Origin: Folioceros fuciformis
Lineage: Eukaryota
DNA: 64,000 nucleotides
Direction of reading: 5' to 3'
NCBI GenBank assembly: GCA_049999805.1
Contig: JBNGIO010006185.1
Coordinates: forward strand, 96,170-160,169
Shown: positions 13,861 through 60,242 of the stretch, piece after piece
Layout of the letters: the number at the start of each line of letters is the position of its first letter
Position numbering within the stretch: position 1 is the first letter of the stretch
Made by a program: the position numbers and the translations under genes
Notes under the pieces: model-generated
What the model saw: the letters and a program-made list of their open reading frames with translations, nothing else
Database searches by the model: none
Told to the model about the DNA's origin: nothing

Positions 13861-16800
13861 CTACTTCTTGTAGCCAGCCTGTTTCATCCACAAGGACCAC
13901 CTTGCAGCCTCCAAAAGGTTTCCACTCTTCTCAAACGCTGAGATCAGGTTCGTGTACGTTACGTGGTCTGGTAAGAATCCAGCATCGTTCATCTCACGAA
14001 GCAGCTTCACTGCTTCATCTGGTTGACCAGCGTTTCCATATGACTTGATCAGGGTGTTGTACGTGTACTTATCCGGTGCCAAACCTTCGCTCCGCATCTT
14101 GTCTAACACCGCTTGGAGCTCTTCCATCATTCTCTGCTTACCATAGACATTGAGCAAGATGTTGTAGGTGGACAGATCTTTCTCACACCCTGCTCGCTCC
14201 ATGCGTTCAAGTGCATCCTCCATGTTGCTTAACTGCCCTGCCTTTCCATACGCATCAGCCATGGAGTTGAAAGTGTCCAGACCAGGTGAGAAGCCTGCCC
14301 TTTGCATTTCCCACAAAGTTTCTTCCATCTTTGCAAAGTTCTTCACCTTACCATATGCATTCACGAGGGTACTGAACGATATTCGATCCGCAACTCCCTG
14401 ATCCTGAGCCAGCTTTAGAACTTTGCTTGCCCTCTGCAGGTATCCTTGCTTGCCATACAAGTCAATCATGACGTTGTACGTGATAGCGTTGGGCGCAAAT
14501 CCGGAATCCAACATATTGTTGAAGACGTTGGCAGTTTCCTCCAAAGGCAATGCTCGCCCACAGCAGTTGATGACGCAATTCGACATAGCAGCATCCAGAT
14601 TGATGCCAGCTTTCACCATTGCCCAGTACATATCTGCTGCTTCCTGCATGACAAGATGACTCTACTCAGTCTCTACTCATGGCAAGGAGAAACGGCATGA
14701 TGGAAAAGCAGGCAACCCAGGAACGACTGGCTTAGGCCTTGAGATTACTTGCCTGCTGCAGTCCGTTTTTCTGGTACACTCGTATCATGGCATGGAATGT
14801 GTACGCATCAGGTACAAACCCGCCTTCTTCCTGCATCAGCTTTAAGGTTCGTATTGCTGACTCGTGAATTCCAGCTCGCATGTACACATTGAGCATCACA
14901 TTGTAGGCCACCGAATCCAGCTTCTTCGTCGACGCCCTCAGTTGATTAAAAAGCTCCTCTGCCTTTGCGACTCTGCCCATCCACCCGTACACATCGATCA
15001 TGGTGCACCACATGTCCAGACCCGCCGAAATGCCTTCTGCCTGCAGTTGCAAGAACAATTGTGCAGCGTCCTCGTAACGGCGGGCATTGCGAAGACCTAG
15101 CAGCAGGTTGTGGCATAAACTGGGTCGGGGCAGCACCTTGGCCTGCCGTAGAACTTCGAACTGCTCCAGAGCTCTCACTGGCATCTTTAGCTTCAAGTAC
15201 ATACTTAAAATTACAGAGGAGCACTCAACATCAGGCAACCACCCAGCTTCTGACATTGCAGAGAAAAGTTGAGGAACCCTGTTAAGCTTGTGACAAGCAT
15301 CATGCGCCTTGACAACTCTTTCGAGAATTCTGGCATCTGGATTGACTCCCATTTCTGTCATCTCTATCAACATCCTTGACACAGCACCTAGATTGTTCGC
15401 CTGTCCATACAAGCGTATGAGCGTGCCAAAAGTAGCCCGACTGGGCGCGATTCCTGCAACCTTCATTTCCTCATAGAAGTGCACAGCTTCTTTCAGCTTG
15501 TTGGCCTTTCCACAGGCACCTACCAAAGAGTTGTAGGTCACCTCATCTCCTTTCAGCCTAGACTCCTGAACCTGTCTGAAGACAAGTATCACCTTGGGGA
15601 ACATTTTAGCCCTGCCATAGGCCATGATCATGGTATTGTACACGACGAGGGGTAAGTTGCCTGACTCCTTCAACTTCTCCATAACTCTCTCACACTCCAG
15701 AACCTTCCCTTGCCGGGAAAACACATTCAGTTGAACAATGAGATTCTCTCTATCTGGCATCACATTCCGGATTGCCATTTGGCTCACAAGTTGCTCAGCT
15801 TTGTCAGCAAGCCCCGCTCTCATATACAACACAATCATCGAAGAGTAAGCATTGCAGGGCTCAGGACCGCAGGCCTGCATGTGAGCAAAGACTCTCTCTG
15901 CCTCGGCCAGCCTGTTAGCCTTCTGGTAGATGATCATGAGCATACCATAAGTCACCTCATTGGGTGAAATACCATTGCTCAACATTCTGTTGAACCATTC
16001 TGTAGCCTGTTCTGAAGAACCCGAACTCCCAGCAGCAAGAATCAGAGTATTGTAAGCATACAACTCAGCTTTCGAACCCATGCTCTGTCTGCGCATCTCC
16101 CCTAAATAAGTATGCACGGTTTCCCAATCTCTCTCTTCTGCCAGTATCTTGAGCACAATACTGTAGGCGTGGGAATTGGACTTGGCCCTCCCTGTCTGCC
16201 TCATCCAGCGAAAAAAGTGAAGAGCCTTTCTATCTTCTTCCAAAGCAGCCAAAACCTTGTTCAAGTCCGTGTTCGTCAGTTTCAACCCGGACCTCTTCAT
16301 AATATCCTCGATATCTGCTGCCGCCATGCGTGTGGCTCGGAGGGACTGAACCAATGCACCAAGCTCCTCCCTCGACCTACAACCTGATCCAGTTTCTGCA
16401 TCGTAGGTAGATTTATCTCGATCTCCACTATCACCATCATCGGTGAACAATTGCAGAAACTGCCCTTCCCCATCCTCAAACCTTCCCACAGGCTCCACAC
16501 ACTCCCCATGTACCTCCTCCCTCCTCTGTTTGCCTTCCACCTCCAACGTCTCCATAAACAACTTGTTCCTGCTCATGGAGGACAAACTCAACGTCTGAAC
16601 ATCCTCGGGCTCCACTACCCTGGGAAGCACTCGAGCTGCCACCATTCTTCCTCCTCCTGATCCCACCGGTTCACTTGAACTCGCTCCCATCCATCTTCCG
16701 TACACACAAAACCCCCCACATTGTGCTCTCTGCCCTGCCAAACCCCTGAGACCAAGACACCGCAAATCCAACGTTTGGCACTCACGCCCACATGCCCAGC

Positions 16801-16915
16801 TCAAGTCATGGGACCCGCTTACGACGGAAGAGGCAGACCGCGCACACACCATTGCAGGCATTCCTGCAATGCAGACGCTGCCGTTAAATAATTGCAGCAA
16901 GCTGCATTCCAACAC
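13861..16915 (-). CDS. BFA2: P-class PPR protein, At4g30825/BFA2-like, two exons
   Basis: Long P-type PPR arrays and the C-terminal LEAARWSLWMKQ motif typical of this family. A transit-peptide-like N-terminus is present. Intron 14752-14644 joins the two ORFs in frame. Start codon uncertain. Confidence 0.82.
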
Positions 16916-18794: not shown

Positions 18795-19910
18795 TCAGAT
18801 GAAAGGCAACAACAAGTATTCGATGTAGAACAGATTCCAGATGAAGCGGTAGAAGTCGCTGATGGCTTTCCTAGAGTACTTCCCAGCATCCAGGGCCCAG
18901 GTCTGATACACGAGCGCGGCAGCAAGCAAGGCGTGGCTGGGGATCAGCACCTGGGGCTTGAAGGCTTGCGGCAAGGCTATGGCCGCAGCGATGGCGCCCA
19001 CGTAGTTGGCCAGTAGCAGCCCTGCTCCGAGCCAGGAGATGGTTCGCACTCCCAGCTTGGTGGCGAAGGTGGAGATGTTGTACTTAATGTCGCCCTCCAC
19101 ATCCGGGAGGTCCTTGGTGATGGCGATGACGGTAGCGAAGACGGTGACAAAGATAGTGATGAAGACGACAGAGGGATTCCAAGCGAATTCCAGCCCGATG
19201 GCCGCGCGGGTGGCGTAGTAGACCCCGAAGTTGAGTAGGAAGCCACGCACTGTAGCGATGATGAGAAACGCTGGTACCGCGAACCTCTTGAGCCGCAGCG
19301 GCGGGACGGAATAGATAGCACCCAGCCCCAGCCCGAGCGCGTAGAGCCCGGTGATGAGCGGGCCGAAGTGTGTGCTCACAATCCCCAGCCCCAGCGCCGC
19401 GAACCCTACCACCATCGCCCAGGCCGCCGGCACCGAGAGGTCCCCAGCTGCGATCGGCAGGAAGGGCTTGTTCACACGGTCGATTCCCACGTCATAGATC
19501 TGGTTGATCCCCACGATGTAGCCGTTCCCGGCCAACAGCGCCAGGAGGCCTCGCAGCGCCTTGGGGAGCAAGCGCCAGTCCACCAGCTGCGGATTCTCCA
19601 GAAGCGCGCGGGCCACCAGCGCTGTGGTCCCGATGAGCGTTCCCCGGATAGTGTGCGGCCGCACGAAGCGCCAGCATGCATCCAGATGCAGCTGGAATGC
19701 CGGCCCGTCCGGGGCCGCATCGCTGCTGCTGCTGCCGCTCCTGCACCTCGCCTGCCTGAGCAGCCTGGACCCCGACCCGACGTTGGAGCCGATCCTCTTG
19801 CAGCTCAGTCGCGGTAGCAGCCGAGGCTGGAGCGTGCAAATTAGGTCACCTGCACTCTGCAGGCTGCAGAGCGATGTCGCAGCGGGAGAGACCAGCAGCC
19901 TGCATTCCAT
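18795..19910 (-). CDS. HST: Homogentisate solanesyltransferase (UbiA family), intronless
   Basis: [57 protein letters not shown] and [10 protein letters not shown] are HST-type motifs. Transit peptide present. Confidence 0.93.
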
Positions 19911-30618: not shown

Positions 30619-31775
30619 ATGGCTGCCTGTTCCCAACTGCGCGCGCCTTTACAGGCGTTGGCAGCATCCAGCATTAGCTCGTCCGAGGGGTTGCGGCAGG
30701 GCAATCCTGTGCGCGTTCGACTGCCTCTGGTTCCATCGCGTAGACAATGCAACGGCGCTTTCATCAGAGCCGCTACTGCAGTGGCGCCTAAGGTTTAGTG
30801 TCAGGGACCTTATTTTGCTTGAGCGGCAAGCTGCGGTAGTCGTTTTGCAGTGTCTGAGGGATTCTCATTTTCTGTTTTGGTGCATCAGTTCAAAACCTTG
30901 ACGCCGCTGGGAGACCGTGTCCTGGTGGAGATCGAGACTGTTGAGGAAAAGACGAGCGGCGGAATTCTTCTCCCTACCACTGCTCAGACCAAGCCTCAAG
31001 GTGGCAAAGTTGTCGCCGTTGGCGAAGGGAAGACAGTCGGCGACAAGAAGGTTGCTCCCAGCGTACAGGTTGGACCGCTTTTGCAGCCCTAACCGAACTC
31101 TGGTTCCCAGTCAAGCTGCTCCGTCTGCCGGCTAGGATATGTTGAGCCTATTGGCTTTAGCTTCCGGGGGAATAACCCATTCATCTGCGCAGACCGGTAA
31201 CTCCATTGTGTACTCGAAGTACGCTGGAACAGAAGTGGAGTTCAACGGCACAGACCACCTTTTGCTGAAGGAAGATGATGTTGTCGGGCTTCTGCAAACT
31301 GATGACATCAAGGATTTGCAGCCTCTGAACGACAGGGTGCTCATTAAGGTGACGTATCCTCTGAATCTTGACTTTTGCACTATTTTTGTGGTGGAGGCCC
31401 GCTCACGCGTCTGCGGATGTCAGATTCAAGAAGCAGAGGACAAAACAGCGGGCGGAGTGTTGCTTACAGACAGCGCCAAGGAGAAGCCTGTCATTGGGAC
31501 TGTGAGTAAGCTAAAACCCTAGCTAAGTGACCGGTGTAGGAATTGTGATGCTGAGCTGAATTCAGTGTGCTCTCTTTTTTTGCGATTGCGATTGTGAGCA
31601 GGTTGTTGCGACTGGGCCTGGAGCTCTTGGTGAAGACGGTGTGCGGAAGCCGTTGCAAATGTCCTCTGGCAACAGTGTATTGTACTCCAAGTATGCTGGA
31701 AACGACTTCAAAGGCAAAGATGGGGCTCAATACGTGGTCCTGAGGGCTTCAGATGTCCTCGCCGTGCTGAGCTAG
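30619..31775 (+). CDS. CPN20: Chloroplast 20-kDa co-chaperonin (tandem GroES domains), 5 exons
   Basis: Transit peptide, then [20 protein letters not shown] / YSKYAGTEV / [19 protein letters not shown] / [11 protein letters not shown]...DVLAVLS*. Confidence 0.95.
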
Positions 31776-32268
31776 ACAACAACATTTTTGTCATATCAAC
31801 GTGATATAACTTGAGTTCACGTTTCAACCTAACGGGTCTTGCGGCTTCCTGTGGCTCCTATCTCGTAGATATACCAAGTCCTGTATCCTAATTCGGTTTA
31901 CATTCAGAGCTCTGGTTTATCATGCTGCAAGGCGCAGCTCTCATTGGCTTTCAGCTACCTGCCAGGCCTCAGATCTGCTACTGTGGGGTCAACCGTGTTG
32001 AGTATGCCGCCTGCAAAAGTGTGATAGGCATGGCTGCCGCTCGCCATTCAAGTACCTCTTTCGCTAGTGTATGTACATATCATTACCATCATGATATTGT
32101 TCCCATTCCAATGCCCACACTTTCCAATGGAAGGGTGACAGATGGCGAGGAACTTTACACACAGTAGTTTCCTCTTCCGCCTTCATTGATACACACTTAC
32201 TTCAGTACTCTATATTCATCACAAGCTGCTATGCATCTAGCGGAGGCATTCTAGGCTCACTGCCAAGG

Positions 32269-32450
32269 CTAATTAATATAACCACCAGGTGGTTCGCTAA
32301 GAACTCTCAAGATGGGTTCGTCTCTTCGGTCCACCACCTTGTACGGACGCAGAGGAGCTAGAGGAGGCATCCCAGGCTCATTGCCGGGGCTAGGACCACT
32401 GGGTGAGTTCCTGGGACCCTTCCAGTCGATCACCTCCTGCGCAGGTGGAC
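32269..32450 (-). pseudogene. Truncated paralog (3' part only) of the SGPS-repeat peptide precursor
   Basis: VIDWKGPRNSPSGPSPGNEPGMPPLAPLRP..., plus a 3' flank (32090-32270) homologous to 35890-36100. No signal-peptide region. Confidence 0.7.
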
Positions 32451-32457
32451 GAGCCAG

Positions 32458-33030
32458 AAGAATCATCAGCCACCTGTGCCCTGCAACACTCTCAACTTGG
32501 TTGAAAGTCGTAGGACACAAGGAAAAACCCAGCGACACTCCCCTAAATGCTTTTTTATTCCTCGAATTAGCGAAATTGTAAGAACTTGATCATAGCCCAC
32601 GATATTTCATGATATTCTCACTTCACACCAGTCCAAAAGACGGGCTCTACAACGCGCCTACGATTTGCGCACAAATGTGCTCACTTCTCGACTACTCCTG
32701 AAACCAGGATCCCGTGCACAGAAAGCTCCTTCCAATGGACACGCCACCGCTGCCAATCCTCGCTTGCGGCTTGCTCCCGTGGTGAGCTGCAAACGGATTG
32801 AACCACAGCCGTGACTAAGATGCTTTTGCGTGACAAGCACCAGACAGTGACCTGGACCTCACAAGTGTGAGAATAAGGAGATGGTACGATAGTACAGTTC
32901 CCAAAGCACAAGTACGTAGTGGTGTCGGTCCAGAGACCCTGCACGGAGCGTTCAGAGCCGTCCTTATGCGATCTGTCCCACACTTAAAATGTAGCTAGGC
33001 CTTTCACAATCCGTGCATGCCGGGTTCTTG
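32458..33030 (+). repeat. ~0.6-kb segment duplicated at 40641-41340
   Basis: aagaatcatcagccacctgtgccctgcaa...cgacactcccctaaatg...gtggtgagctgcaaacggattgaaccacagccgtgactaa...ccgtgcatgccgggttcttga is present in both places in the same orientation. Confidence 0.88.
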
Positions 33031-33661: not shown

Positions 33662-34868
33662 TCAACATCCACAATCTGTAAGGCCAGTGTACCCCACCTG
33701 CTTCACATGTGTCCTTAAATGATCCAGCAAAGTGTACACCGTTGGCTCATGTTCATGCCTGCCTGCCTGCCATCGCCCACGAGGAATGTGTGCAAATGCT
33801 GTTTTCATGCTGGATCCAGCTCTGGCCAGGGTTCTTCCATGCACCTGCACACAGTCTCAGAGTATTCACTTCCTGCCCTGCGCACAGTCCCACAATCCAG
33901 CATTCGTAAACATGTTTGCCATCTGCACATACGTCGCCGAGTGCTGTGGGTCCGAACCCACATCACCATGGAAGGCACGCTTCCCAAGCAACACGTTACC
34001 ATGCTTTTGACAGGCACCCAGCAAACACAACCACAGCGTCAAATCGGGCTTCATGGGCATCTGCGAAAGCATAACTTCTGTGAGGCTGAAGAGCTCAGCA
34101 CGACTGACCAGATCGATGACACAAGCATAATGCTCCAGCTCCACAGAAATGTCATGCTCCCAGCTCATGTTTCCGTGACTCCGTTTGGTTTCACTCCTCT
34201 CCCACACATTCTCTCGTTGCACTCCACACTCAACTCACAACTTCCTTAGCGAGCGTAACCAGCAATAAGCGCCGTCCACGATACGACATCCGGCTAGGGC
34301 AATGAGTCAAACATGTTCTGAGCATCCTGCATGCTCCCACACTCGCTGTGTGCATGAAAGAGACTGTCTGCCACACAAAGACGCTGCTCCCATCCACTCT
34401 CCCGTATCCTCCCATGGATCTGCACACAGGCGCTTGAGGCCCTTGCACGACTGCACGCTTCCAAGATACACACAAACATGCCCTCATCCAGAATCGTGCC
34501 CCTAGCCCCCAACCGACCATAAAGTGGCAAGGCTCTTTCTCCTTGTTCCTGCTGGCCATACGCCGAAATCATGGCAGTCCAAGACACTAAATCATGCTTG
34601 GACAAAAAGTGGAACACCGGCTCGGCATCCTTGATGCTCCCACACTTTGAATACATACCATACATATTGCTGCACTATTGACAAAATCGTCTGATCCAAA
34701 TCCCATTCTCACAGCTTCCGCATGTACTTCCTTACCCTGCCGCAGTGAGTCTACCTTGACTAACCTACCATCCACAAGAACTCCTTTCTCCTTGTCTGCA
34801 ACCATGCCACAACCCTGGAGACTGCTGACAAAGGCCCATACATCTAGACTCAAACCCTCTTCCCTCAT
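33662..34868 (-). pseudogene. PLS-E class PPR pseudogene
   Basis: MYSKCGSIKDA..DLVSWTAMISAYGQ, VELEHYACVIDLV, DPQHSATYVQMANMF, and a PG-box-like KNPGQSWIQ are spread across several frames (frameshifts and stops). Confidence 0.8.
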
Positions 34869-36166
34869 GTGTCCATTGGAGTGGCACATCGTGGAAAGAT
34901 CGAGCTTGCAGTTGTGTACAACTCTTTTCAATATGAACTCTTGGTTGCTCGAAGAGGCTGTGGTAACGTCCTCCGTTCTATCTTCTTCAACCTTTGAGCT
35001 CAACCGCGCTTGGCACTGGGTCATTGTGTTTAGTTCGAAATCCAGTGTGATGGGGCAGGGAAGTGTTGATCTCCTCATGCTGTCCGACCGTGTACAGGTG
35101 CAGACCTCAATGGAAAACCCATATCGGTATTAACACGGGAAACAGCACTGGAAGATGCTACTGTATCACTGAGCTTCTCCTGTAAGGTGTTTTTGGGCTT
35201 TGAAAGGTAGCTTCACGCATGGGAAGATCTTTGGTTTCATCAGCTAATACTGCTAATCTATGTTTGCAGCCAGAACTTCGGTTGCGAATGGTGGATGCCA
35301 TATCTAAGGTAGCATGCTCTTAAAGTTCTGTCTGTCCGGGCTGTAGGCACTGCTGTGAGTTGAAGTACATCATGAAAAGTTGTGGTCTTATCATCTTACG
35401 TTGCTCGTAGAGGGTGCTGTAGCAGTTGAGAGTGAGCCTTCCATCTTGCTGTTGTTGAGATTGTAACAACGGTTGCCTGGGGTTAGGCTCTTGATATGAG
35501 CTCCGTTGGCGCTGGTCGACTGGGTTGTTTCTTTGAGCATCGCTCGAAGGTCTGTGCCCAGCAAGTGGATCCTCGAGTTGAAATGCCTTTCTGGGTGGCT
35601 CTGCATGGCTGATGATAATATCAATCCATGAGGAACGCTTGTGTTTTGTTCAGGATTACGTTGTGCTATTACGATTTCGCCTCCTGGATTCCCAGACAAA
35701 TCATGACCCCAGTGTGCCCAATTCTTTTTGCAGCCATGGGATATTGCAGCAGCAAGGTTGATCGTGGAGGTATGTGTATCCATCAATTCTTGTCGGTTTG
35801 GTGACTCCGAAGAAAGTCCTTCACTTGTGATGGAGGTATCGATAGAGCCGGAGACTTCTTTTCTATGGTTGAATTTCATCGTTACAATCGTGATTTTGTT
35901 CCCATTTCAATGCCAACACCTTCCAATGAAAGGGTGCCAGATGGTGAAGAACATTACACACAGTAGTTTCCTCTTACGCCTTCATTGATGCACAGTTTCC
36001 TCTTACGCCTTCATTGATCCACACTTACTTCTATACTCTATATTCACAAGCCTCTATGGATCTAGAGGAGGCATTCTAGGCTCCTTGCCAAGGATAATTA
36101 ATAGAACCACCAGGTGGTTTCGCTAACAGCTCTCAAGACGCCTTCGTCTCTTCGGTCCATCACCTT

Positions 36167-36629
36167 CTACGGACGCAGACGAGCCAAAGGAGGCATCCCA
36201 GGCTCATTGCCGGGGCTAGCACCACTGGGTGGGTTCCTGGGACCCTTCATGTCGATCCCCTCCTGCCGACGCAGACGAGCCAAAGGAGGCATCCCAGGCT
36301 CATTGNNNNNNNNNNTCCTGCCGACGCAGACGAGCCAAAGGAGGCATCCCAGGCTCATTGCCAGGGCTAGGACCACTGGGTGGGTTCCTCGGACCCTTCT
36401 GGTCGATCACATCCTTCAGAAGCCGAGGAACTAGAGGAGAAATCCCTAGCTCATTGCCAGAGCTAGGACCACCAGATGGGTGCCTGGCATCCCTCAAGAT
36501 GTTGCCATCAATCTCGTTGCTGTTGGGCAAGTGACTCCCAAATATGCCGACAAGTGTGCATGCAAACAGGAGGAGAAGAGCGAGGAAAACGGTAGAGAAA
36601 GATCGCCCCAACCCCACAAATTTTGTCAT
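36167..36629 (-). CDS. Secreted precursor with repeated CLE/IDA/PIP-like RxxPSGPxP peptide domains
   Basis: The signal peptide MTKFVGLGRSFSTVFLALLLLFACTLVGIFG is followed by 32-aa units containing RHPSGGPSSGNE, RNPPSGPSPGNE and RNPPSGASPGNE. A 10-N gap lies inside the array. Confidence 0.72.
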
Positions 36630-36927
36630 TCTGACTACCTGCACAACCCAAGCAAACATCAAGTAATAAGTTTCGTCTTCCATCTCAACTGCAGTTTGCT
36701 TCACCAACACTCTACTCATTTCAACGCAAAAATAATAAAAATAATAGAATCATCTAGAAGCAAATCTAAACAAAGTATCTCAATCAGAGCTACGTAAATT
36801 TCAATCTATGAGTAAGACTACTGTAATGAAGCCTAACAGCAAAAGTACTTATCAAGAGTATGCATAACTCACCAAAAGGTGAGCAATTGCACTCAAATAT
36901 GTGAGCTTACCAAGAGAGGAGCTTCAC

Positions 36928-36934
36928 ATATATA
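36928..36934 (-). promoter_or_regulatory. Putative TATA box of the peptide precursor gene (5'-UTR intron ~36872-36639)
   Basis: TATATAT on the minus strand, followed by a G/GTGAGT donor at 36872 and a TGCAG acceptor just upstream of the ATG. Confidence 0.5.
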
Positions 36935-37980
36935 GTAAACAACCTCATCTTTATGCCGATACCAAGTGCCTTCCCTTCGCTCCTTTATCACTAAAAGTCT
37001 ATAAAACTATCTTTTTGCACTACATAATATGAATTTCAAGAAGAATTCATGATGGGGTTCAACTTGATTTTATGTATAATATTATCCTCTTGATTACGTC
37101 TATCACTACATTATTTTTATTCTTTTTGGTTATCTTAAAATTTTCTTTCCATGGGCATTCCTCAAATACAATCAAAAGGATCTTCCTTGAAGGTGGTCTT
37201 CGAAGAGCTGAATGGGGGGGGGCAGGCAGGGGTAGAATGGAAGTGGGAAGTCTTCTCTTTACCCTGTCACCTACTTGCACCCAAAACAATGGAGGCCTGA
37301 ACCCTAATCATAAAACAACCCACCGCTTAAGCACAAGTAGATTTGAACCCACCTTGGAAGCCCCAAATTAAAGGAACATGAAAAGAAAGTCTAACTATAA
37401 ACATGTCATACCTTACAATTATTGAAAAGGAGAGTTGATCTTTTGAACAATGCCTCATTTTAAAGTTTGAATGTACATAAATTGATTCATGATTCATGTC
37501 CTACAACATCTTGGGCAACAAAGATCTTGGTCATGGTAAGGTCCATGATGTTGCCAAAAGTGGGCTAGGTGGGTGTTCGTCTTCCATACGTCACCACTTT
37601 TCGCCACTTGATTGTTCCCTTTGTGACGGTACTGGGTACATGACGTATCCAAAATGTTCCCTTTGTGACGTTAATGGGTGGGTGACGTATCAAAAGAGTG
37701 GCTACTTGACCGGTCCTGTCTGGTCCCTCCTTGTGCGACCTACTGGTTGACAGTATGCACGACAACTTCTAGTGGGGTTGACAGTATGTACTACAATGTT
37801 GAGTTGACTGCTATTGTGCAAAGTGACCGGATGAATGAGATTATGGAGATGTAGAGTGACTCGTTTGACTGTTCCACGTCCGTTGCAACGACTCTTTGAA
37901 GGCTGCAATCCTTAGAGAATATTAGGGTTGAGTGCTCTAAAAGGGGTTAGGGCTGGGTGTCGGAGAGCAGTGCGGCTGCG

Positions 37981-38370
37981 GCTATCTGCAGTGTTCCCAA
38001 GCTCTCATTATGTGATAGTCCATCTAGCTAGGCTATCTGCAGTGTTCCCAAGCTCTCATTATGTGATAGTCCATCTAGCTAGGATTGCTTCATTGCAGTG
38101 AGTGAGCCCGATGAAAACATTGCATCAGCGCCCAATGAAAGCATTGCTTCATGAGTGGTTCCTCTACTGACAGTGTGTTTTGTTTCATCCAATAAGTGTT
38201 TCAGGGATACAAGGTGTGAGTGCTGAAGCTAGGTGATTCTTCTTTTTTGGGTGCTTCTTCTTTGAGGGAGTGTTCTGGCCAGCTCCGAGTAGCCAGGTGA
38301 TTCTTCGTTTTTGGGTGCTTCTTCTTTGAGGGAGTGTTCTGGCCAGCTCCGAGTAGTGCTTCATCAAGGG
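37981..38370. repeat. Two small tandem duplications (~52 bp x2; ~63 bp x2)
   Basis: gctatctgcagtgttcccaagctctcattatgtgatagtccatctagctag occurs twice. aggtgattcttc..tttgggtgcttcttctttgagggagtgttctggccagctccgagtag occurs twice. Confidence 0.85.
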
Positions 38371-38837
38371 AGTGTTCCAGCCAAAGTCTTCCAACCATCC
38401 ACTTAGCAAGTCCTGTAAGGTAGGTATGCACAACAGTAGCCGGAGTTTGGAAACTTGGAAGTTATAGAGTTGCAAGATGCTTACGTGAGTGGCGCGGCTT
38501 GCGGCTTGGTGTCTTTGTTGCCTTGAAGTCGGACTGAGTGGTAGTGGGAGTCAACTGTATCTATGTCAGAAGTCGCAAAAGTCAGTCGCAAAAGTCAGTT
38601 GTGTAGAAGTCAGAGGGGTGGGGTGGGTGTGACCCAGTGGCAAGGTTTCACTCAACCATGGTTTCTGGTTGTCAACTGCTAACAGACTGCTGTAACGACA
38701 CAGTTAGGCTTGCCTTACCAGCATGACCTAGGGTTTGGTCACAGGAAGCGGATCTGCGGGCTGCAGCCCGTTGCTGTTTCGGTGGGTTGTTGTAGGCAGA
38801 GAGGATCTGGACTGACAGCTGTGCATCATGTTTCAGG

Positions 38838-40361
38838 ATGGGAGAAAATGGTCCTGCAATCAACTTGCATCTGCTTATGGGCAGCTGGGAGGAGGAACCT
38901 CTCCCGGGCCAGGGGGTCAGGGGCCCAGCCATAAAGGTCCCTCGTAGCCTCCCAGAGGACGTTGTGAGGAGAATCATCTCATTCACCCCATTTGTCGCGC
39001 AATTGAGGGCTAAGGTTATATCCAAGGAGTGCAAGAACACGATAGAGACAGCTGGTTTCCGGTGGCAGAGCACTGTAGCTGGAATGCCCACCCCTGCTGT
39101 TATATGTGCCTATGAAGTCATAGGAGGGGACCAACCAGGGCGTCATGAACTGCAGCTCCAGCCTTTCCCCGAAGGACCGAGGATATACTGCCAGTCATGG
39201 GTTGACGAGCCGGAGGAGCAGGAGGTGCCACGCAGGTGCGCTAGGAAGGTCAACAAACTCAACCTGGATTTCCTTCCCCAGAGGATGCGAAGCATACCCA
39301 CCTCTACTTTCCATGAGCCAGAAATGGTTTTCTTTGGCGATGGGATGATGTGCATCAAGAGATATGGACCAGAAGGGTGCATGATAATTATCAACGTGTT
39401 AAACAGGACATGGAGGAAGCTCCCCAAACCCAACGTACCAGAGATGTTGAAGGATCGGAAGATCTACAAGTACAAGGTAGAGGACATTACCTGTGATGTC
39501 GATAAGGATACCGCCACTTTCCAGATACTTCACTTCTTGCAGTGGTCTGATTACACCGAAAGCAGACATACGTGGTGTGTGGCCATATATACTTCTGAGA
39601 CCAATTCATGGAGAGTTGTCAGGGGGGACATGTTTAGAACTCCAAGACCCCCCACCCCCGATTACCAGAAGGCATTTGTGAGGGCCCTTGCTGAAGGCCA
39701 CCTCTACACCCTGTGCAGTCATGCCAATGGACGGCTCACAGTACACAGCCTAGACGATGGTACCCAGATGGAAGAGATCCATCCACGGGCACCACCTCAC
39801 CCGAAGTTATTGGACCTCCAAAAGGCAGGACTCAAGAGCCTTACGTATACGCACGGTGTTCGGCTACATGAATGGAAGGGCATTTGGTGTTACAGAGGGA
39901 TCCTGTATGCAGCAGTGACCTATATGGCCCAGGGAAATTTCCTGTGGGGAGTCACTATCCTCAGTCCGGATAAAAAGAGCTGGGGGAAAGCAAAGCTGCT
40001 TCGATGTGCTCCATGGCCCAATAAAGCAGGATGCCGAGGATTCACCTACAGCTGGGATGGACACGTTGGTCTCGCTGGACAATTCATATGGGTGTCTCGG
40101 TACTACATAACAGAGGAGAGCATGTCAGAAGCTGGACCCTCACATAGGCCTCCTCCCCCTGCCACAGACGGGAGCATAAATGAGATCATGCAGGACTGGC
40201 ATACACTGGCACTTTTTGACATTCACCAGGAATGTTGGATAGAAGTCTTGAACGACATCAGAGGCAAAGACTCGAGAAAACTATCTGTGTTCGAGCCCAA
40301 GGCCGTGCACATCCACCTGACCACCAGTGAGGACGCGTCTGGACTCAACGGCAGAAACTGA
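38838..40361 (+). CDS. F-box protein with divergent C-terminal (kelch/FBA-like) domain, single coding exon
   Basis: SLPEDVVRRIISFTPFVAQLRAKVISKECKNTI is an F-box. IINVLNRTWRKLP and IYTSETNSWR are typical of plant F-box beta-propeller proteins. Confidence 0.72.
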   Translation: MGENGPAINLHLLMGSWEEEPLPGQGVRGPAIKVPRSLPEDVVRRIISFTPFVAQLRAKVISKECKNTIETAGFRWQSTVAGMPTPAVICAYEVIGGDQPGRHELQLQPFPEGPRIYCQSWVDEPEEQEVPRRCARKVNKLNLDFLPQRMRSIPTSTFHEPEMVFFGDGMMCIKRYGPEGCMIIINVLNRTWRKLPKPNVPEMLKDRKIYKYKVEDITCDVDKDTATFQILHFLQWSDYTESRHTWCVAIYTSETNSWRVVRGDMFRTPRPPTPDYQKAFVRALAEGHLYTLCSHANGRLTVHSLDDGTQMEEIHPRAPPHPKLLDLQKAGLKSLTYTHGVRLHEWKGIWCYRGILYAAVTYMAQGNFLWGVTILSPDKKSWGKAKLLRCAPWPNKAGCRGFTYSWDGHVGLAGQFIWVSRYYITEESMSEAGPSHRPPPPATDGSINEIMQDWHTLALFDIHQECWIEVLNDIRGKDSRKLSVFEPKAVHIHLTTSEDASGLNGRN

Positions 40362-50101: not shown

Positions 50102-50626
50102 TCAAAAGCAACAATCACAGTCAAAAGGGCAAAGAGACGTGCCGCCGGAATCCTTCTTGAGCCCCAGCTCCTCTTCAGAGTACACGGTGAAGCCTTCCGC
50201 AGTCTTCCTCCTTGCTTTGGCGGGAACAGTAGGAGCGCCCCTTTCGCTTTCCCTATCTCGAGTTTTTTGCTTCGCCTGTTTCTTCCCCGTTTGCAGTTTC
50301 GGAGATTTGTTGCGGCTAGCATCGGCCTCATGGCTGTCATCGGCTTGCGAAGGTCGCCGCTTCCGCTTTCTCTGAGCGAAAATCGTCTCTATCTCATCGA
50401 CCTCATTTGCATCCGGATGCTGGTCTTTCTCGTTTCTGGCAGCCTCCACATNNNNNNNNNNNNNNNNNNNNNNNNNNNNNNNNNNNNNNNNNNNNNNNNN
50501 NNNNNNNNNNNNNNNNNNNNNNNNNNNNNNNNNNNNNNNNNNNNNNNNNNNCTCGTTTCTGGCAGGCTCCACATCCACGGTCGCTTCCTGAAGGCGTTTG
50601 GCCTTGCTACGCTTCTTCAACCCCAT
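50102..50626 (-). CDS. DUF1764 family protein (spans a 100-N gap)
   Basis: EVDEIETIF and the C-terminal RRKTAEGFTVYSEEELG...GGTSLCPFDCDCCF* are DUF1764 hallmarks. Confidence 0.88.
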   Translation of the reverse strand: MGLKKRSKAKRLQEATVDVEPARNEXXXXXXXXXXXXXXXXXXXXXXXXXXXXXXXXXXVEAARNEKDQHPDANEVDEIETIFAQRKRKRRPSQADDSHEADASRNKSPKLQTGKKQAKQKTRDRESERGAPTVPAKARRKTAEGFTVYSEEELGLKKDSGGTSLCPFDCDCCF

Positions 50627-56822: not shown

Positions 56823-59800
56823 ATGTGGAAATTCTTCATGAAGGAATGGAATGCTTTCTGTCTTGTTTTCACAATCCCCTCTTGCAGGACAGCGAGGTGT
56901 GAACGGGCTCTGCAGTCATGGACTGGAAGGAAGCAGTCCAGGGAGGGACAGCTGAATGCTGCCGTTGAAGTGCTGAACGATCTGGTGAGGGAAGGATTTT
57001 ATGCTCCAGCATTGCTCTGGTATCATGTCCTCAGCATGTGCGTTGTCGAGAAGGATGTACATGTTGCCGAGCATGTCCATGCTCTTATTCTGGAAGGTGG
57101 GCAGGAGTCAAACACATTCGTGGCCAACCATGTTATCCGCATGTATGCTTCTCATGGAAGGTTGCAGCAGGCACTGCAGGTGTTTTCTAGTCTGGCTACT
57201 CCAGACTCCTCAATGTGGGCTTCTATTATTCTGGCACATACTGGGCAGGGGCGGCCTGCAGAGGCCATCAGAATGTATCAGCAGATGCGACAGTCAGTGG
57301 TGAAGCCCAATAACTATGCTTTCATGGCAGCCCTGAAAGCATGCTCTTGCGCACTGGATTTTGCTGCAGGGAAGCAGGTCCATGCTGATGTTCTAGAAAG
57401 CATAGTCGAGCCCAATCTTTTTGTTGGCAACTGCCTCGTGGACATGTATGCGAAATGTGGGGGCTTAGAGTATGCCCGCCGAGTGTTTGACACGTTGCCC
57501 ATTAGGAATGTGGTTACGTGGAACGCTATGATTGCCGGATATGTTCAACAGGGATTTGCTCAAGAGGCCCTTGCTCTATATGCCACTATGCCAAAGGATG
57601 GCAGCATCTCAGCCGATCGTGTAACGTATGTGTGCCTACTGAAAGCATGCGCTAGTGTTAGAGCCTTAAGTGAGGGGAAGACGCTTCATTACCAGATTCA
57701 AGGCACAGAATGGGAATCTGACGTGGTTGTTGGCAGCAGCTTGGTGGACATGTATGCCAAATGCGGGACATTAGAGCATGCTCGCGGAGTTTTTGACAGG
57801 ATGCCTGCTAGAGATGTCGTAACTTGGACAGCCTTGATCGCTGGATATTCTCAACAAGGGCGTGCTCAAGAAGCCCTGAGCCTGTATTCATGTATGAGAA
57901 ACGAGGGTGTCAGTACAGCTAATCATATCACATTTGCGTGTGTCTTGAAAGCATGCGCCAGTTTGGGAGCTCTCCGTGAAGGAAAGGAGCTTCACATTGA
58001 GATCCAGGATAAGGGCATGGAATTTGATGAGGTTGTTAGCAGTAGCCTTGTTGATATGTACACACAATGTGGCAGCCTCCAAGATGCTCGGGGATTGTTT
58101 GATAGGTTACCTGTGAAAGGTGTGGTGGCCTGGAATGCCCTAGCTAGAGGATATGCTCAGCAAGGGCTCCCTCAAGAAGCCCTTACTTTGTATGCAAGGA
58201 TGCGCCGGGAGGATGTGCTTGCCAGTCACGGTACCTCTGTGTGCCTCTTAAAGGCATGTGCCAGCATTTGTGCCTTACACGAAGGACGACAGCTACATTT
58301 GCAGCTTGAGAGAAGAGGACTTGCAGCGGATCTCGTTATTGGGAGCAGCCTAATAGATATGTACGCAAAGTGTGGGAGCTTAGAGGATGCTCGCAGAGTG
58401 TTTGATAGCTTGCCTGTTAAAAATGTGGTGACATGGACTGCCATAATTTCAGGGTATGCACAGCAAGGGGTTGCTCAGGAAGCTCTTGCCCTCTACACAA
58501 GAATGCAACAGGAAGGTATCACATCAGTTGACCGTGTCTTGTTCATGTGCCTCCTGAAAGCGTGTGCTGGCATCGGCGCTTTGCAGGGGGGAAAGGAACT
58601 GCACACCCAGATTCAAGAACATGGGCTAGAGACCGATTTGGATGTCGCAAATAGCCTGATCGACATGTATGCAAAGTGTGGGAGCTTGGAGGATGCCTGC
58701 AGGGTGTTTGAAGGATTATCAACAAAAGATGTTGTGACTTGGACTGCCCTCATTTCAGGACTTTCCCACCACGGGCTTGGTGAAGAGGCTCTTGGTGTTT
58801 ATGCAAGTATGCGGGCTGAGGGCATGACGCCAGCAAACAATGTAACTCTTGTATGCCTTTTAAAAGCATGCGGCAGCGTTGGAGCTCTAGATCAGGGTAA
58901 ATGGATTCACTCCCTGATTCAGGACAGAGGCTTAGACGCTGAAATGGTTCTTGGCAACTGTTTGGTGGATATGTATGCAAAATGTGAGAGCCTGGAAGAT
59001 GCGCGTGGAGTGTTTGACAGATTACCTGTAAGAGATGTCACGATATGGACGGCCATGATAGCAGGATATGCTCGGCACGGGCCTGCTGAGGAGGCCCTTG
59101 TCCTTTATGCTAGTATGCAAGAGGAAGGTCTTGTTCCAGCGGACCATGTGACATTTGTATGCCTTCTTAAAGCATGTGCTGCTGTTGGGGCTCTACATCA
59201 AGGGAAGCAGCTTCATATTCAGATCCAGGAAAGAGGATTTGAGAGTGAAGTGGTTGTGGGCAACAGCCTGGTGGATATGTATGCGAAATGTGGAAGCTTA
59301 GAGGATGCCTTCATCACGTTCGATAGATTACCAACAAGAAATGTGGTGACATGGAATACTTTGCTGGCTGGTTACAGCCAACATAATGATGGGAGAAAGG
59401 CAATCCAGTGTTTCCAAGAGATGCTGCAGCATGGGGTCGTGCCTGATGGCTCTACCTTCCTTTGTCTTTTCGTGGCATGCAGTCGCACGGGTCTAGTTGA
59501 CGAGGGGCTTCAGTTCTTCAACAAAATGGTGCATGAGTATGGCATAAACCCTACAGTTTCTCACCATAATGCATTGGTTGACCTTCTTGGGCGGTCAGGC
59601 CGTTTACATGATGCAGAAAGTATCTTGCAAACCATGCCAAGCACCAACAACATCGTCGGCTGGGTATCTTTGCTTAGCTCCTGCAAAGTCCACAGTGATC
59701 TGGATCGAGGAGCCCGCTGTTTTGACCATATAGTTGGAGTTGAGCCCCAACATTCTGCGGCATATGTGTTGCTGGGAAACATCTATGCAAATGCTGGTAG

Positions 59801-60242
59801 GTGGCGGGATGTAGAGAGGATAGAAGCTCTGAGAAAGGCCGCAGGTGCTTGCAAGAAGCCTGCAAGGGCCTGGATTGAGGTGAACAACAAGGTTCAGGCA
59901 TTTACTGTGGGGCAAGACAGTGATGACGTCTTGTCCAAGCTAAGGAGTGTGAATCATCACTTAAATGGTGGAGGACCAAAACTGGTTTCTGAGGCAGACA
60001 GGGAAGATGCTTTGTGTGGACATGCTGAGAAACTGGCATTGGCTTATGGTCTACTGAACACTGCAGATGGCACAACTTTACTTGTCACCAAGAACCTCCG
60101 CATGTGTAATGACTGCCACATTGGCACCAAGGTCATGTCAAGAGTCGAAAAGAGAGAGATCGTAGTCAGGGACGCACATTGTGTTCACCGTTTTGTGAAT
60201 GGATTTTGTTCTTGTGGCGATGGTCAATCATCAGTTTGCTGA
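56823..60242 (+). CDS. PLS-class PPR protein with DYW:KP domain (putative U-to-C organellar RNA editing factor); N-terminus probably from upstream exons (~56313 on)
   Basis: About 8 PLS triplets, E1/E2, then KKPARAWIEV (KP box), HAEKLALAYGL, KNLRMCNDCH, VRDAHCVHRF..G.CSCGD. Confidence 0.9.
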   Translation: MWKFFMKEWNAFCLVFTIPSCRTARCERALQSWTGRKQSREGQLNAAVEVLNDLVREGFYAPALLWYHVLSMCVVEKDVHVAEHVHALILEGGQESNTFVANHVIRMYASHGRLQQALQVFSSLATPDSSMWASIILAHTGQGRPAEAIRMYQQMRQSVVKPNNYAFMAALKACSCALDFAAGKQVHADVLESIVEPNLFVGNCLVDMYAKCGGLEYARRVFDTLPIRNVVTWNAMIAGYVQQGFAQEALALYATMPKDGSISADRVTYVCLLKACASVRALSEGKTLHYQIQGTEWESDVVVGSSLVDMYAKCGTLEHARGVFDRMPARDVVTWTALIAGYSQQGRAQEALSLYSCMRNEGVSTANHITFACVLKACASLGALREGKELHIEIQDKGMEFDEVVSSSLVDMYTQCGSLQDARGLFDRLPVKGVVAWNALARGYAQQGLPQEALTLYARMRREDVLASHGTSVCLLKACASICALHEGRQLHLQLERRGLAADLVIGSSLIDMYAKCGSLEDARRVFDSLPVKNVVTWTAIISGYAQQGVAQEALALYTRMQQEGITSVDRVLFMCLLKACAGIGALQGGKELHTQIQEHGLETDLDVANSLIDMYAKCGSLEDACRVFEGLSTKDVVTWTALISGLSHHGLGEEALGVYASMRAEGMTPANNVTLVCLLKACGSVGALDQGKWIHSLIQDRGLDAEMVLGNCLVDMYAKCESLEDARGVFDRLPVRDVTIWTAMIAGYARHGPAEEALVLYASMQEEGLVPADHVTFVCLLKACAAVGALHQGKQLHIQIQERGFESEVVVGNSLVDMYAKCGSLEDAFITFDRLPTRNVVTWNTLLAGYSQHNDGRKAIQCFQEMLQHGVVPDGSTFLCLFVACSRTGLVDEGLQFFNKMVHEYGINPTVSHHNALVDLLGRSGRLHDAESILQTMPSTNNIVGWVSLLSSCKVHSDLDRGARCFDHIVGVEPQHSAAYVLLGNIYANAGRWRDVERIEALRKAAGACKKPARAWIEVNNKVQAFTVGQDSDDVLSKLRSVNHHLNGGGPKLVSEADREDALCGHAEKLALAYGLLNTADGTTLLVTKNLRMCNDCHIGTKVMSRVEKREIVVRDAHCVHRFVNGFCSCGDGQSSVC

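Follow-up and report, generated by a model that had tools for sequence, protein, structure and literature searches.

CLE and IDA peptides are proline-rich peptides of 12-13 amino acids (aa) that end in HN or HH, and this C-terminal pair touches two arginines that many subfamily XI receptors possess (PMC8462819). PSGP is common to IDA and some CLE peptides, and CEP and PIP peptides terminate in GxGH (PMC8462819). An S(G/A/V)PS core is common to IDL and PIP peptides; IDLs continue with (R/K)(R/K)HN and at most 13 further residues (PMC4526919). Several motifs can share one precursor, with two in three PIP/PIPLs and five in CEP9, and the PIP/PIPL and CEP families are reported from seed plants only (PMC4526919). 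Multi-CLE precursors (rice CLE75/CLE76, wheat CLE30/31 and Medicago CLE68) hold two to six near-identical proline-rich motifs; in five multi-CLE proteins the first motif follows 50-75 aa, the rest are placed about 30 aa apart, and the similarity of the spacers points to tandem duplication (PMC2254619). Here we compare these systems with a candidate peptide gene on the minus strand of a 64,000-nucleotide (nt) stretch of DNA from Folioceros fuciformis (contig JBNGIO010006185.1), which is called the window throughout. We tentatively read it, with less than even confidence, as a real, young and lineage-restricted gene for a small secreted polyprotein that resembles multi-motif precursors and falls outside the named families.

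The proposed coding frame starts at an ATG (36629-36627) and is open down to 36318, which gives 104 aa; past a 10-N assembly gap (36306-36315) it resumes at 36304 and closes with a TAG at 36169-36167 after 45 aa. Merged at the gap, the precursor has a minimum size of 135 aa and its C-terminal end reads ...LARLRP. The start codon and signal-peptide-like N-terminus occupy 36537-36629 (minus strand). This region carries K3 and R9; an uncharged and largely hydrophobic run of 22 residues (10-31) comes next, ahead of a polar stretch, so that residues 1-31 read, by eye, as a signal peptide. Past the signal region, proline makes up 20%, glycine 13.5% and serine 9.6% of the precursor, and cysteine is absent. 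An earlier note on this DNA had described a hydrophobic signal peptide followed by tandem units with basic spacers, and its overall observation is confirmed: the coding frame, the units and the spacers are all present, as is the hydrophobic stretch, judged here by inspection.

The rest of the protein is built on a period of 96 nt, or 32 aa, with three intact in-frame units on the minus strand, and the tandem repeat is far beyond chance. U1 (36414-36509) is the oldest and most diverged, with the motif RHPSGGPSSGNE at 36450-36485 and a spacer that ends in RLLK. U2 (36318-36413) carries RNPPSGPSPGNE at 36354-36389, with QKG before it and PGMPPLARLRRQ after it, and U3 (36167-36262) carries RNPPSGASPGNE at 36203-36238 and runs into the stop codon. 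U2 and U3 are identical at 87/96 nt and U1 and U2 at 68/96 nt. The first two motifs begin at residues 49 and 81 and the third, if the gap ends are merged, at 113, which is a constant step of 32, and the spacers terminate in basic RLLK or RLRR. The three motifs and the basic stretches between units can all be read in frame as they had been reported. The IDA peptide is preceded by a KG lead-in, and the same had been claimed for these units; this is true of U2 (QKG) and U3 (MKG), and U1 has RDA in its place. A further unit, RNSPSGPSPGNE (32377-32412), is found in a 5'-truncated paralogue described below. Across these four units R1, G6, S8, G10, N11 and E12 are unchanged, so that G-N-E closes the motif in every unit and the replacement of a terminal HN by NE stands as noted earlier. 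The claim that the motif also keeps the other CLE positions needs qualification: R1 and G6 are constant in all four units, and P4, S5, P7 and P9 each differ in one of the four (U1 has S4 and S9, and U3 has A7). The core accordingly reads SGPS in U2 and the paralogue, SGAS in U3 and GGPS in U1.

The architecture resembles that of multi-CLE precursors, with candidate motifs at residues 49 and 81, 32 residues apart, and similar spacers. The R..P(S/T)GP.P core of those proteins is matched by the candidate core RNPPSGPSP, and the precursor is CLE-like in being small (<200 aa) and, by inspection, in having an N-terminal secretion-like signal. The CLE core residues R/H1, P4, G6, P7 and P9 are complete in two of the four units (U2 and the paralogue). 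The likeness ends at the C-terminus, where the candidate has GNE instead of the.HN or.HH of CLE peptides and is without H11 and N/H12. It is nevertheless conceivable, although unlikely, that the locus encodes a true CLE/IDA-type ligand polyprotein that releases a hydroxyproline (Hyp) dodecapeptide, or an Asn-ended 11-mer, for a subfamily XI leucine-rich-repeat (LRR) receptor kinase. The PSGP/SGPS core that it has in common with IDA and some CLE peptides, the invariant R1 and G6 and the multi-CLE-like layout would all fit such a ligand. Rice CLE76, itself a multi-CLE protein, likewise has no HN and ends in ...ITS followed by DPPP (PMC2254619). Cleavage after N11 would leave a G-N end like that of MpCLE1, though one residue shorter (PMC8462819, Table 1). 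Set against this are the absence of the HN/HH pair that contacts the receptor arginines, the presumption that receptors read HN-type ligands, the variation at P4, S5, P7 and P9, and the unusual C-terminal trimming that would be required for an internal motif followed by EPGMPP.

Identity counts also bear on such a ligand. RNPPSGPSPGNE matches CLV3 at 6/12 positions and MpIDA1 at 6/12, with no match in the last three positions, and at these three positions the motif agrees with none of six reference peptides. As a control, the six-frame translation of the window was compared with the references in 767,580 (12-mer, reference) comparisons. Fifteen pairs reached at least 6/12, of which three lie in the gene or paralogue and 12 elsewhere, and PSGP alone occurs five further times elsewhere in the window. 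Likeness of the 12-mer to CLE or IDA by identity count alone is not beyond chance.

With IDA and IDL precursors the candidate shares a signal-peptide-like start, a region of variable sequence and a core of the S(G/A/V)PS type, with PP.GPSP in register with MpIDA1; the S(G/A/V)PS core itself is found in two of the four units (U2 and the paralogue). The last unit has 11 residues beyond its motif, which is within the 13 or fewer of IDLs. Differences are that (R/K)(R/K)HN after the core is replaced by PGNE or SGNE, and that IDA/IDL precursors carry one motif each whereas the candidate carries a tandem array. In addition, U3 has an alanine where the IDA proline is hydroxylated (PMC8462819, Table 1). 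The presence of several motifs in one small secreted precursor is a likeness to PIP/PIPLs and to CEP9. PIP peptides also have an SGPS core, but the candidate is without GxGH anywhere and ends in ...LARLRP. With CEP peptides it has only S-P-G in common (SPGNE versus SPG(I/V)GH), and the C-terminal residues again differ. A further difference lies in the known range of the PIP/PIPL and CEP families, seed plants, since the nearest named relatives of a gene neighbouring the candidate are bryophytes. HypSys precursors, known from Solanaceae and allies, resemble it by description in that one secreted precursor gives rise to several Hyp-rich glycopeptides. Judged on its sequence, the candidate is outside CLE, IDA/IDL and PIP/PIPL, and outside CEP, because the C-terminal residues that define these families are missing. 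It is a reasonable candidate and not an established new family; a lineage-restricted secreted polyprotein is plausible, and the signalling role is a proposal.

A different kind of secreted protein may also have this composition. Extensins have repeated SPPP(P) blocks and Tyr cross-link motifs, and the mature candidate is without SPPP and without Tyr. The more general possibility is a structural or glycosylated proline-rich protein of the Hyp-rich glycoprotein type that stays intact and unprocessed in the wall or apoplast. The proportions of proline, glycine and serine, the lack of cysteine, the repeats and the SP and PPS contexts, which are typical Hyp-glycosylation sites, are all compatible with such a protein. 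We regard it as quite unlikely: there are just three units in 135 aa, SPPP(P) blocks, Tyr cross-link motifs and a hydrophobic glycosylphosphatidylinositol (GPI) signal at the C-terminus are all absent, and the basic spacers resemble processing sites. A match to an ordinary proline-rich wall protein had been named in the earlier note as something that would speak against its proposal, and Pfam holds no such family that matched.

Searches for relatives produced little. Pfam-A, searched with both protein halves, returned no family at E<=1, with the presence of the CLE_plant model (PF27922) in the collection unconfirmed; the profile check for CLE, IDA, PIP and CEP that had been suggested for this protein therefore came back empty within that same limit. 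A word-index protein search left none of 15 candidates at E<=10. In an exhaustive phmmer scan, two of 1,835,955,588 cluster representatives reached E<=0.001, both rejected as repeat-inflated. One of them, P0004, is a long NACHT/HEAT-type repeat protein that was matched through PGNEIA repeats and is spurious. The other, P0003, is a 596-aa protein with eleven near-identical 54-aa repeats, each of which matches 10/25 residues at 26-28 bits; it was rejected because its summed E-value comes from repetition and not from independent evidence. The Pfam matches of P0003, which is an ENA singleton, are domains of unknown function (DUFs), and none of its stretches passes by itself. Its pattern D..D..GPR.P.....PGN..G ... 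LRRR(R) loosely parallels the unit and is an unexplained lead, statistically unsupported once repetition is discounted. In the Atlas language-model feature search (recognition 1996, below 2300) the best scores were at most 0.85 for unnamed clusters and 0.82 for named ones, all under the lead threshold of 0.9 and to be taken as leads only. Plant peptide precursors make up all of the nearest named clusters (0.76-0.82), with 0.82 for CLE_plant (on 10% of members), 0.81 and 0.80 for IDL5, 0.79 for GLV and 0.77 for the CEP9 precursor. A literature string search with motif substrings found no match. Rfam gave no match at E<=1 between 31500 and 37500, and an inverted-repeat scan found an AT-rich low-complexity pair only and no meaningful inverted repeat.

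The assembly gap affects the size of the array. The 45 nt to its left (36261-36305) are identical to the 45 nt to its right (36316-36360), and both frames read NEPGMPPLARLRRQ. Because 10 N is not a multiple of three, the coordinate frame shifts at the gap. Graph assemblers can leave a pair of contig ends whose sequences overlap within repeated DNA. The offset from U2 to U3 is 151 nt, or 96 + 10 + 45, and with identical flanks the simplest reading would be two contig ends of this kind overlapping within the repeat. The gap may therefore hide zero units, in which case merging the ends gives the 135-aa, three-unit protein. Any whole number of extra units would also preserve the frame, so further collapsed units are possible and not implied. 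The earlier suggestion that the gap points to more collapsed units is unneeded, since the flanks overlap exactly by 45 nt. Another assembly gap in the window, at 50452-50551, is exactly 100 N long, and its placeholder size differs from the 10 N within the gene.

Candidate gene signals can be read from the letters upstream of the frame. A putative TATA-like box, TATATAT, lies at 36928-36934 on the minus strand, in agreement with the TATA box reported earlier. The intron that had been placed in the 5' untranslated region (5'-UTR) has canonical donor and acceptor contexts and retains the status of putative. It would span 234 nt (36639-36872, minus strand), from G/GTGAGT to TGTGCAG/G (slashes mark splice junctions), and its GC content of 34% compares with 54-63% in coding sequence. 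The donor is CTTTTG/GTGAGT at 36873/36872, with CTCTTG/GTAAGC at 36911/36910 as an alternative. The acceptor TGTGCAG/G ends at 36639, 9 nt ahead of the ATG, and an alternative acceptor is found at 36689/36688. Use of the alternative acceptor, or no splicing, would bring in an upstream in-frame ATG and extend the N-terminus.

Codon usage was scored as log-odds, with six genes of the window that have Pfam support (3,460 codons) as the training set. The proposed frame scores +0.158 bits/codon and the other two frames -0.385 and -0.396, compared with 0.16-0.34 for the training genes. The non-repeated N-terminal part, in which the repeats have no share, scores +0.181 bits/codon. Codon usage gives modest support for a gene.

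Several results weigh against the reading of the locus as a functional polyprotein gene. Among 161 other window open reading frames (ORFs) of 90-200 aa, 9.9% reach its codon score. The alanine of U3 and the lack of relatives in the Pfam and protein searches, both given above, belong on the same side. Comparison of the units for signs of selection points both ways. In U1 and U2, the oldest pair, more of the motif than of the spacer is conserved, at both the nucleotide level (31/36 versus 31/51, Fisher p 0.015) and the amino acid level (8/12 versus 3/17, p 0.018). For U1/U3 the corresponding p values are 0.145 (nt) and 0.050 (aa), and for U1 and the paralogue 0.446 (nt) and 0.121 (aa); pairs that involve U1 are mutually non-independent, and the signal comes from U1/U2 alone. 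Over the 27 codons compared between U1 and U2, the proportion of nonsynonymous differences (pN 0.273) is about the same as that of synonymous ones (pS 0.224), and mismatches are spread 8/8/5 across codon positions. When translated in the coding frame these two units agree at a smaller share of amino acids (11/27) than when translated in the other frames (14/26 and 15/26). The paralogue matches the gene no better in the unit (85/93) than in the 3' flank (229/259), with unit mismatches of 4/3/1 across codon positions. The constancy of R1, G6, S8, G10, N11 and E12 in all four units speaks for selection, and the one-in-four variation at P4, S5, P7 and P9 speaks against it. The evidence on selection is mixed.

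These numbers bear most directly on the idea that the open frame is non-functional, being a recently expanded and decaying tandem repeat or a gene relic that is open because its copies are young. The near equality of pN and pS, the even spread of substitutions over codon positions and the retention of the unit no better than that of the flank between paralogues all favour such a frame, and the failure of the protein searches to find a relative agrees with it. Frame length says little here, since the window contains 178 frames that run from stop to stop over 90 aa or more. We nonetheless consider a non-functional frame somewhat unlikely, because a signal-like N-terminus stands right before the repeats together with an ATG, a TATA box and a canonical acceptor that ends 9 nt ahead of the start codon, and because the codon score is frame-specific, in the N-terminal part as well. 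U1 is still open despite 28/96 substitutions, and the motif outlasts the spacer between U1 and U2.

Decay at the locus is nevertheless visible. Immediately past the stop codon, at 36040-36166 (minus strand, 127 nt), is a fourth unit that is out of frame, contains an insertion with stop codons and is identical to U3 at 57/96 aligned nt; it retains a GGCAA.GAGCCT..ATGCCTCC block. The paralogue (32079-32467, minus strand) comprises the tail of one unit, the unit with RNSPSGPSPGNE, a decayed unit and the 3' flank, and in self-BLAST it is 80.7% identical over 419 nt to 35878-36293. Its decayed unit is identical to that of the gene locus at 85/98 positions, and because the decayed unit is common to both places, the decay is older than the duplication. 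The paralogue stop has changed to TAC, so that the frame continues for 23 more codons. Homology ends upstream, and the paralogue is without a homologous start codon or signal region. One unit already decayed and a truncated paralogue count for a non-functional frame and against a working gene.

Self-BLAST of 34501-38500 against the 64-kb window found no copy beyond this local paralogue, and the idea that the repeat is part of a transposon was set aside on this window-internal comparison. Both duplicated segments also contain, on the opposite strand (35865-35966 and 31892-32167, plus strand), a frame that ends ...VPI.MPT.SN.RV.DGEE.YTQ before a stop. This frame could be the terminal exon of a plus-strand gene, present in duplicate, or a mere by-product of duplication. 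The 3' region of the peptide gene has a 29-nt tandem duplication at 35965-36023 (two copies, 96% match) that is not in the paralogue. The paralogue itself follows closely downstream of a Cpn10-like gene on the plus strand (31136-31519).

If the locus is read as a small secreted polyprotein gene, as we tentatively prefer, the gene would have arisen by tandem duplication of the 96-nt unit. In favour of this reading are the signal-like N-terminus before three in-frame units, the multi-CLE-like spacing, the frame-specific codon score, the TATA box, splice sites and AT-rich DNA upstream, the retention of the motif between U1 and U2, its six invariant positions, the 6/12 matches of the core to MpIDA1 and CLV3 and, as a lead only, the plant peptide precursors among the nearest Atlas clusters. 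The signal peptide would be removed, and in the secretory pathway the prolines of the PPSGPSP core would undergo hydroxylation, possibly with glycosylation as well. Cleavage within or beside the basic spacers (RLLK, RLRR and K-G) may then release at least three near-identical short proline-rich peptides to the apoplast. The polyprotein of Hyp peptides that the earlier note had proposed is supported in part. The anatomy of the precursor, its multi-CLE layout and the retention of the motif between U1 and U2 speak for it; the C-termini of the known families, a constant core and relatives are what it lacks.

The window has other features besides the candidate. On the plus strand, a gene of the inositol-monophosphatase family is represented by small exons at 34848-34994 and about 35735-35775 (Pfam Inositol_P with E 2e-4, under the gathering score); typical acceptor and donor sites flank its second exon, and this gene and the peptide gene converge at their 3' ends. 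On the other side, the AT-rich intergenic DNA that separates the peptide gene from a plus-strand F-box gene (38838-40361) contains a 42-nt unit twice (37613-37695, 85% match) with TGACG(T) cores, which could be a promoter element. Pentatricopeptide-repeat (PPR) genes or fragments are found at 56823-60242 (plus strand) and at 14732-16861, 13861-14649 and 34297-34674 (minus strand), and one of them is of the PPR-E-DYW editing-factor type with 1139 aa. This set is consistent with a land plant rich in organellar RNA-editing factors. A homogentisate solanesyltransferase of the UbiA family (18798-19910, minus strand) is an uninterrupted, intronless ORF of 371 aa. The named matches listed for it are mostly 380-440 aa long, and its N-terminus may be in another exon. 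Its highest-identity named matches among those listed are from liverworts and mosses (75-79%), which, taken with the many PPR/DYW genes, suits a bryophyte and plausibly a hornwort. None of the 120 matches listed is at 100%, the best being an unnamed record at 87%, so the collections may not hold this proteome; if so, the missing self-match of the peptide says nothing on its annotation.

Canonical CLE and IDA peptides are reported to be nearly the same all the way from bryophytes to Arabidopsis, and the origin of new peptide ligands and the evolution of ligand-receptor specificity in early land-plant lineages are an open question (PMC8462819). A bolder interpretation would connect the candidate with this question. 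It would be a polyprotein of a bryophyte lineage, possibly hornwort, whose Hyp peptides combine a CLE/IDA-type PPSGPSP core with a new C-terminus and serve as ligands, either for an LRR receptor kinase of subfamily XI or for a new receptor. One form of such a ligand would be an 11-mer that ends in ...PGN and is cut before the Glu. The array would then represent a newly born ligand type that arose by tandem duplication and is still both expanding and decaying. We consider this decidedly improbable as it stands. If the gene is not expressed, a core rich in proline, serine and glycine would alone be weak evidence, as is illustrated by 6/12 identity at 12 unrelated places in a 64-kb window. If it is expressed and processed, a multi-copy precursor that shares the PSGP/SGPS core of known peptides and has a different C-terminus would offer a case in which the birth of a ligand by tandem duplication could be tested.

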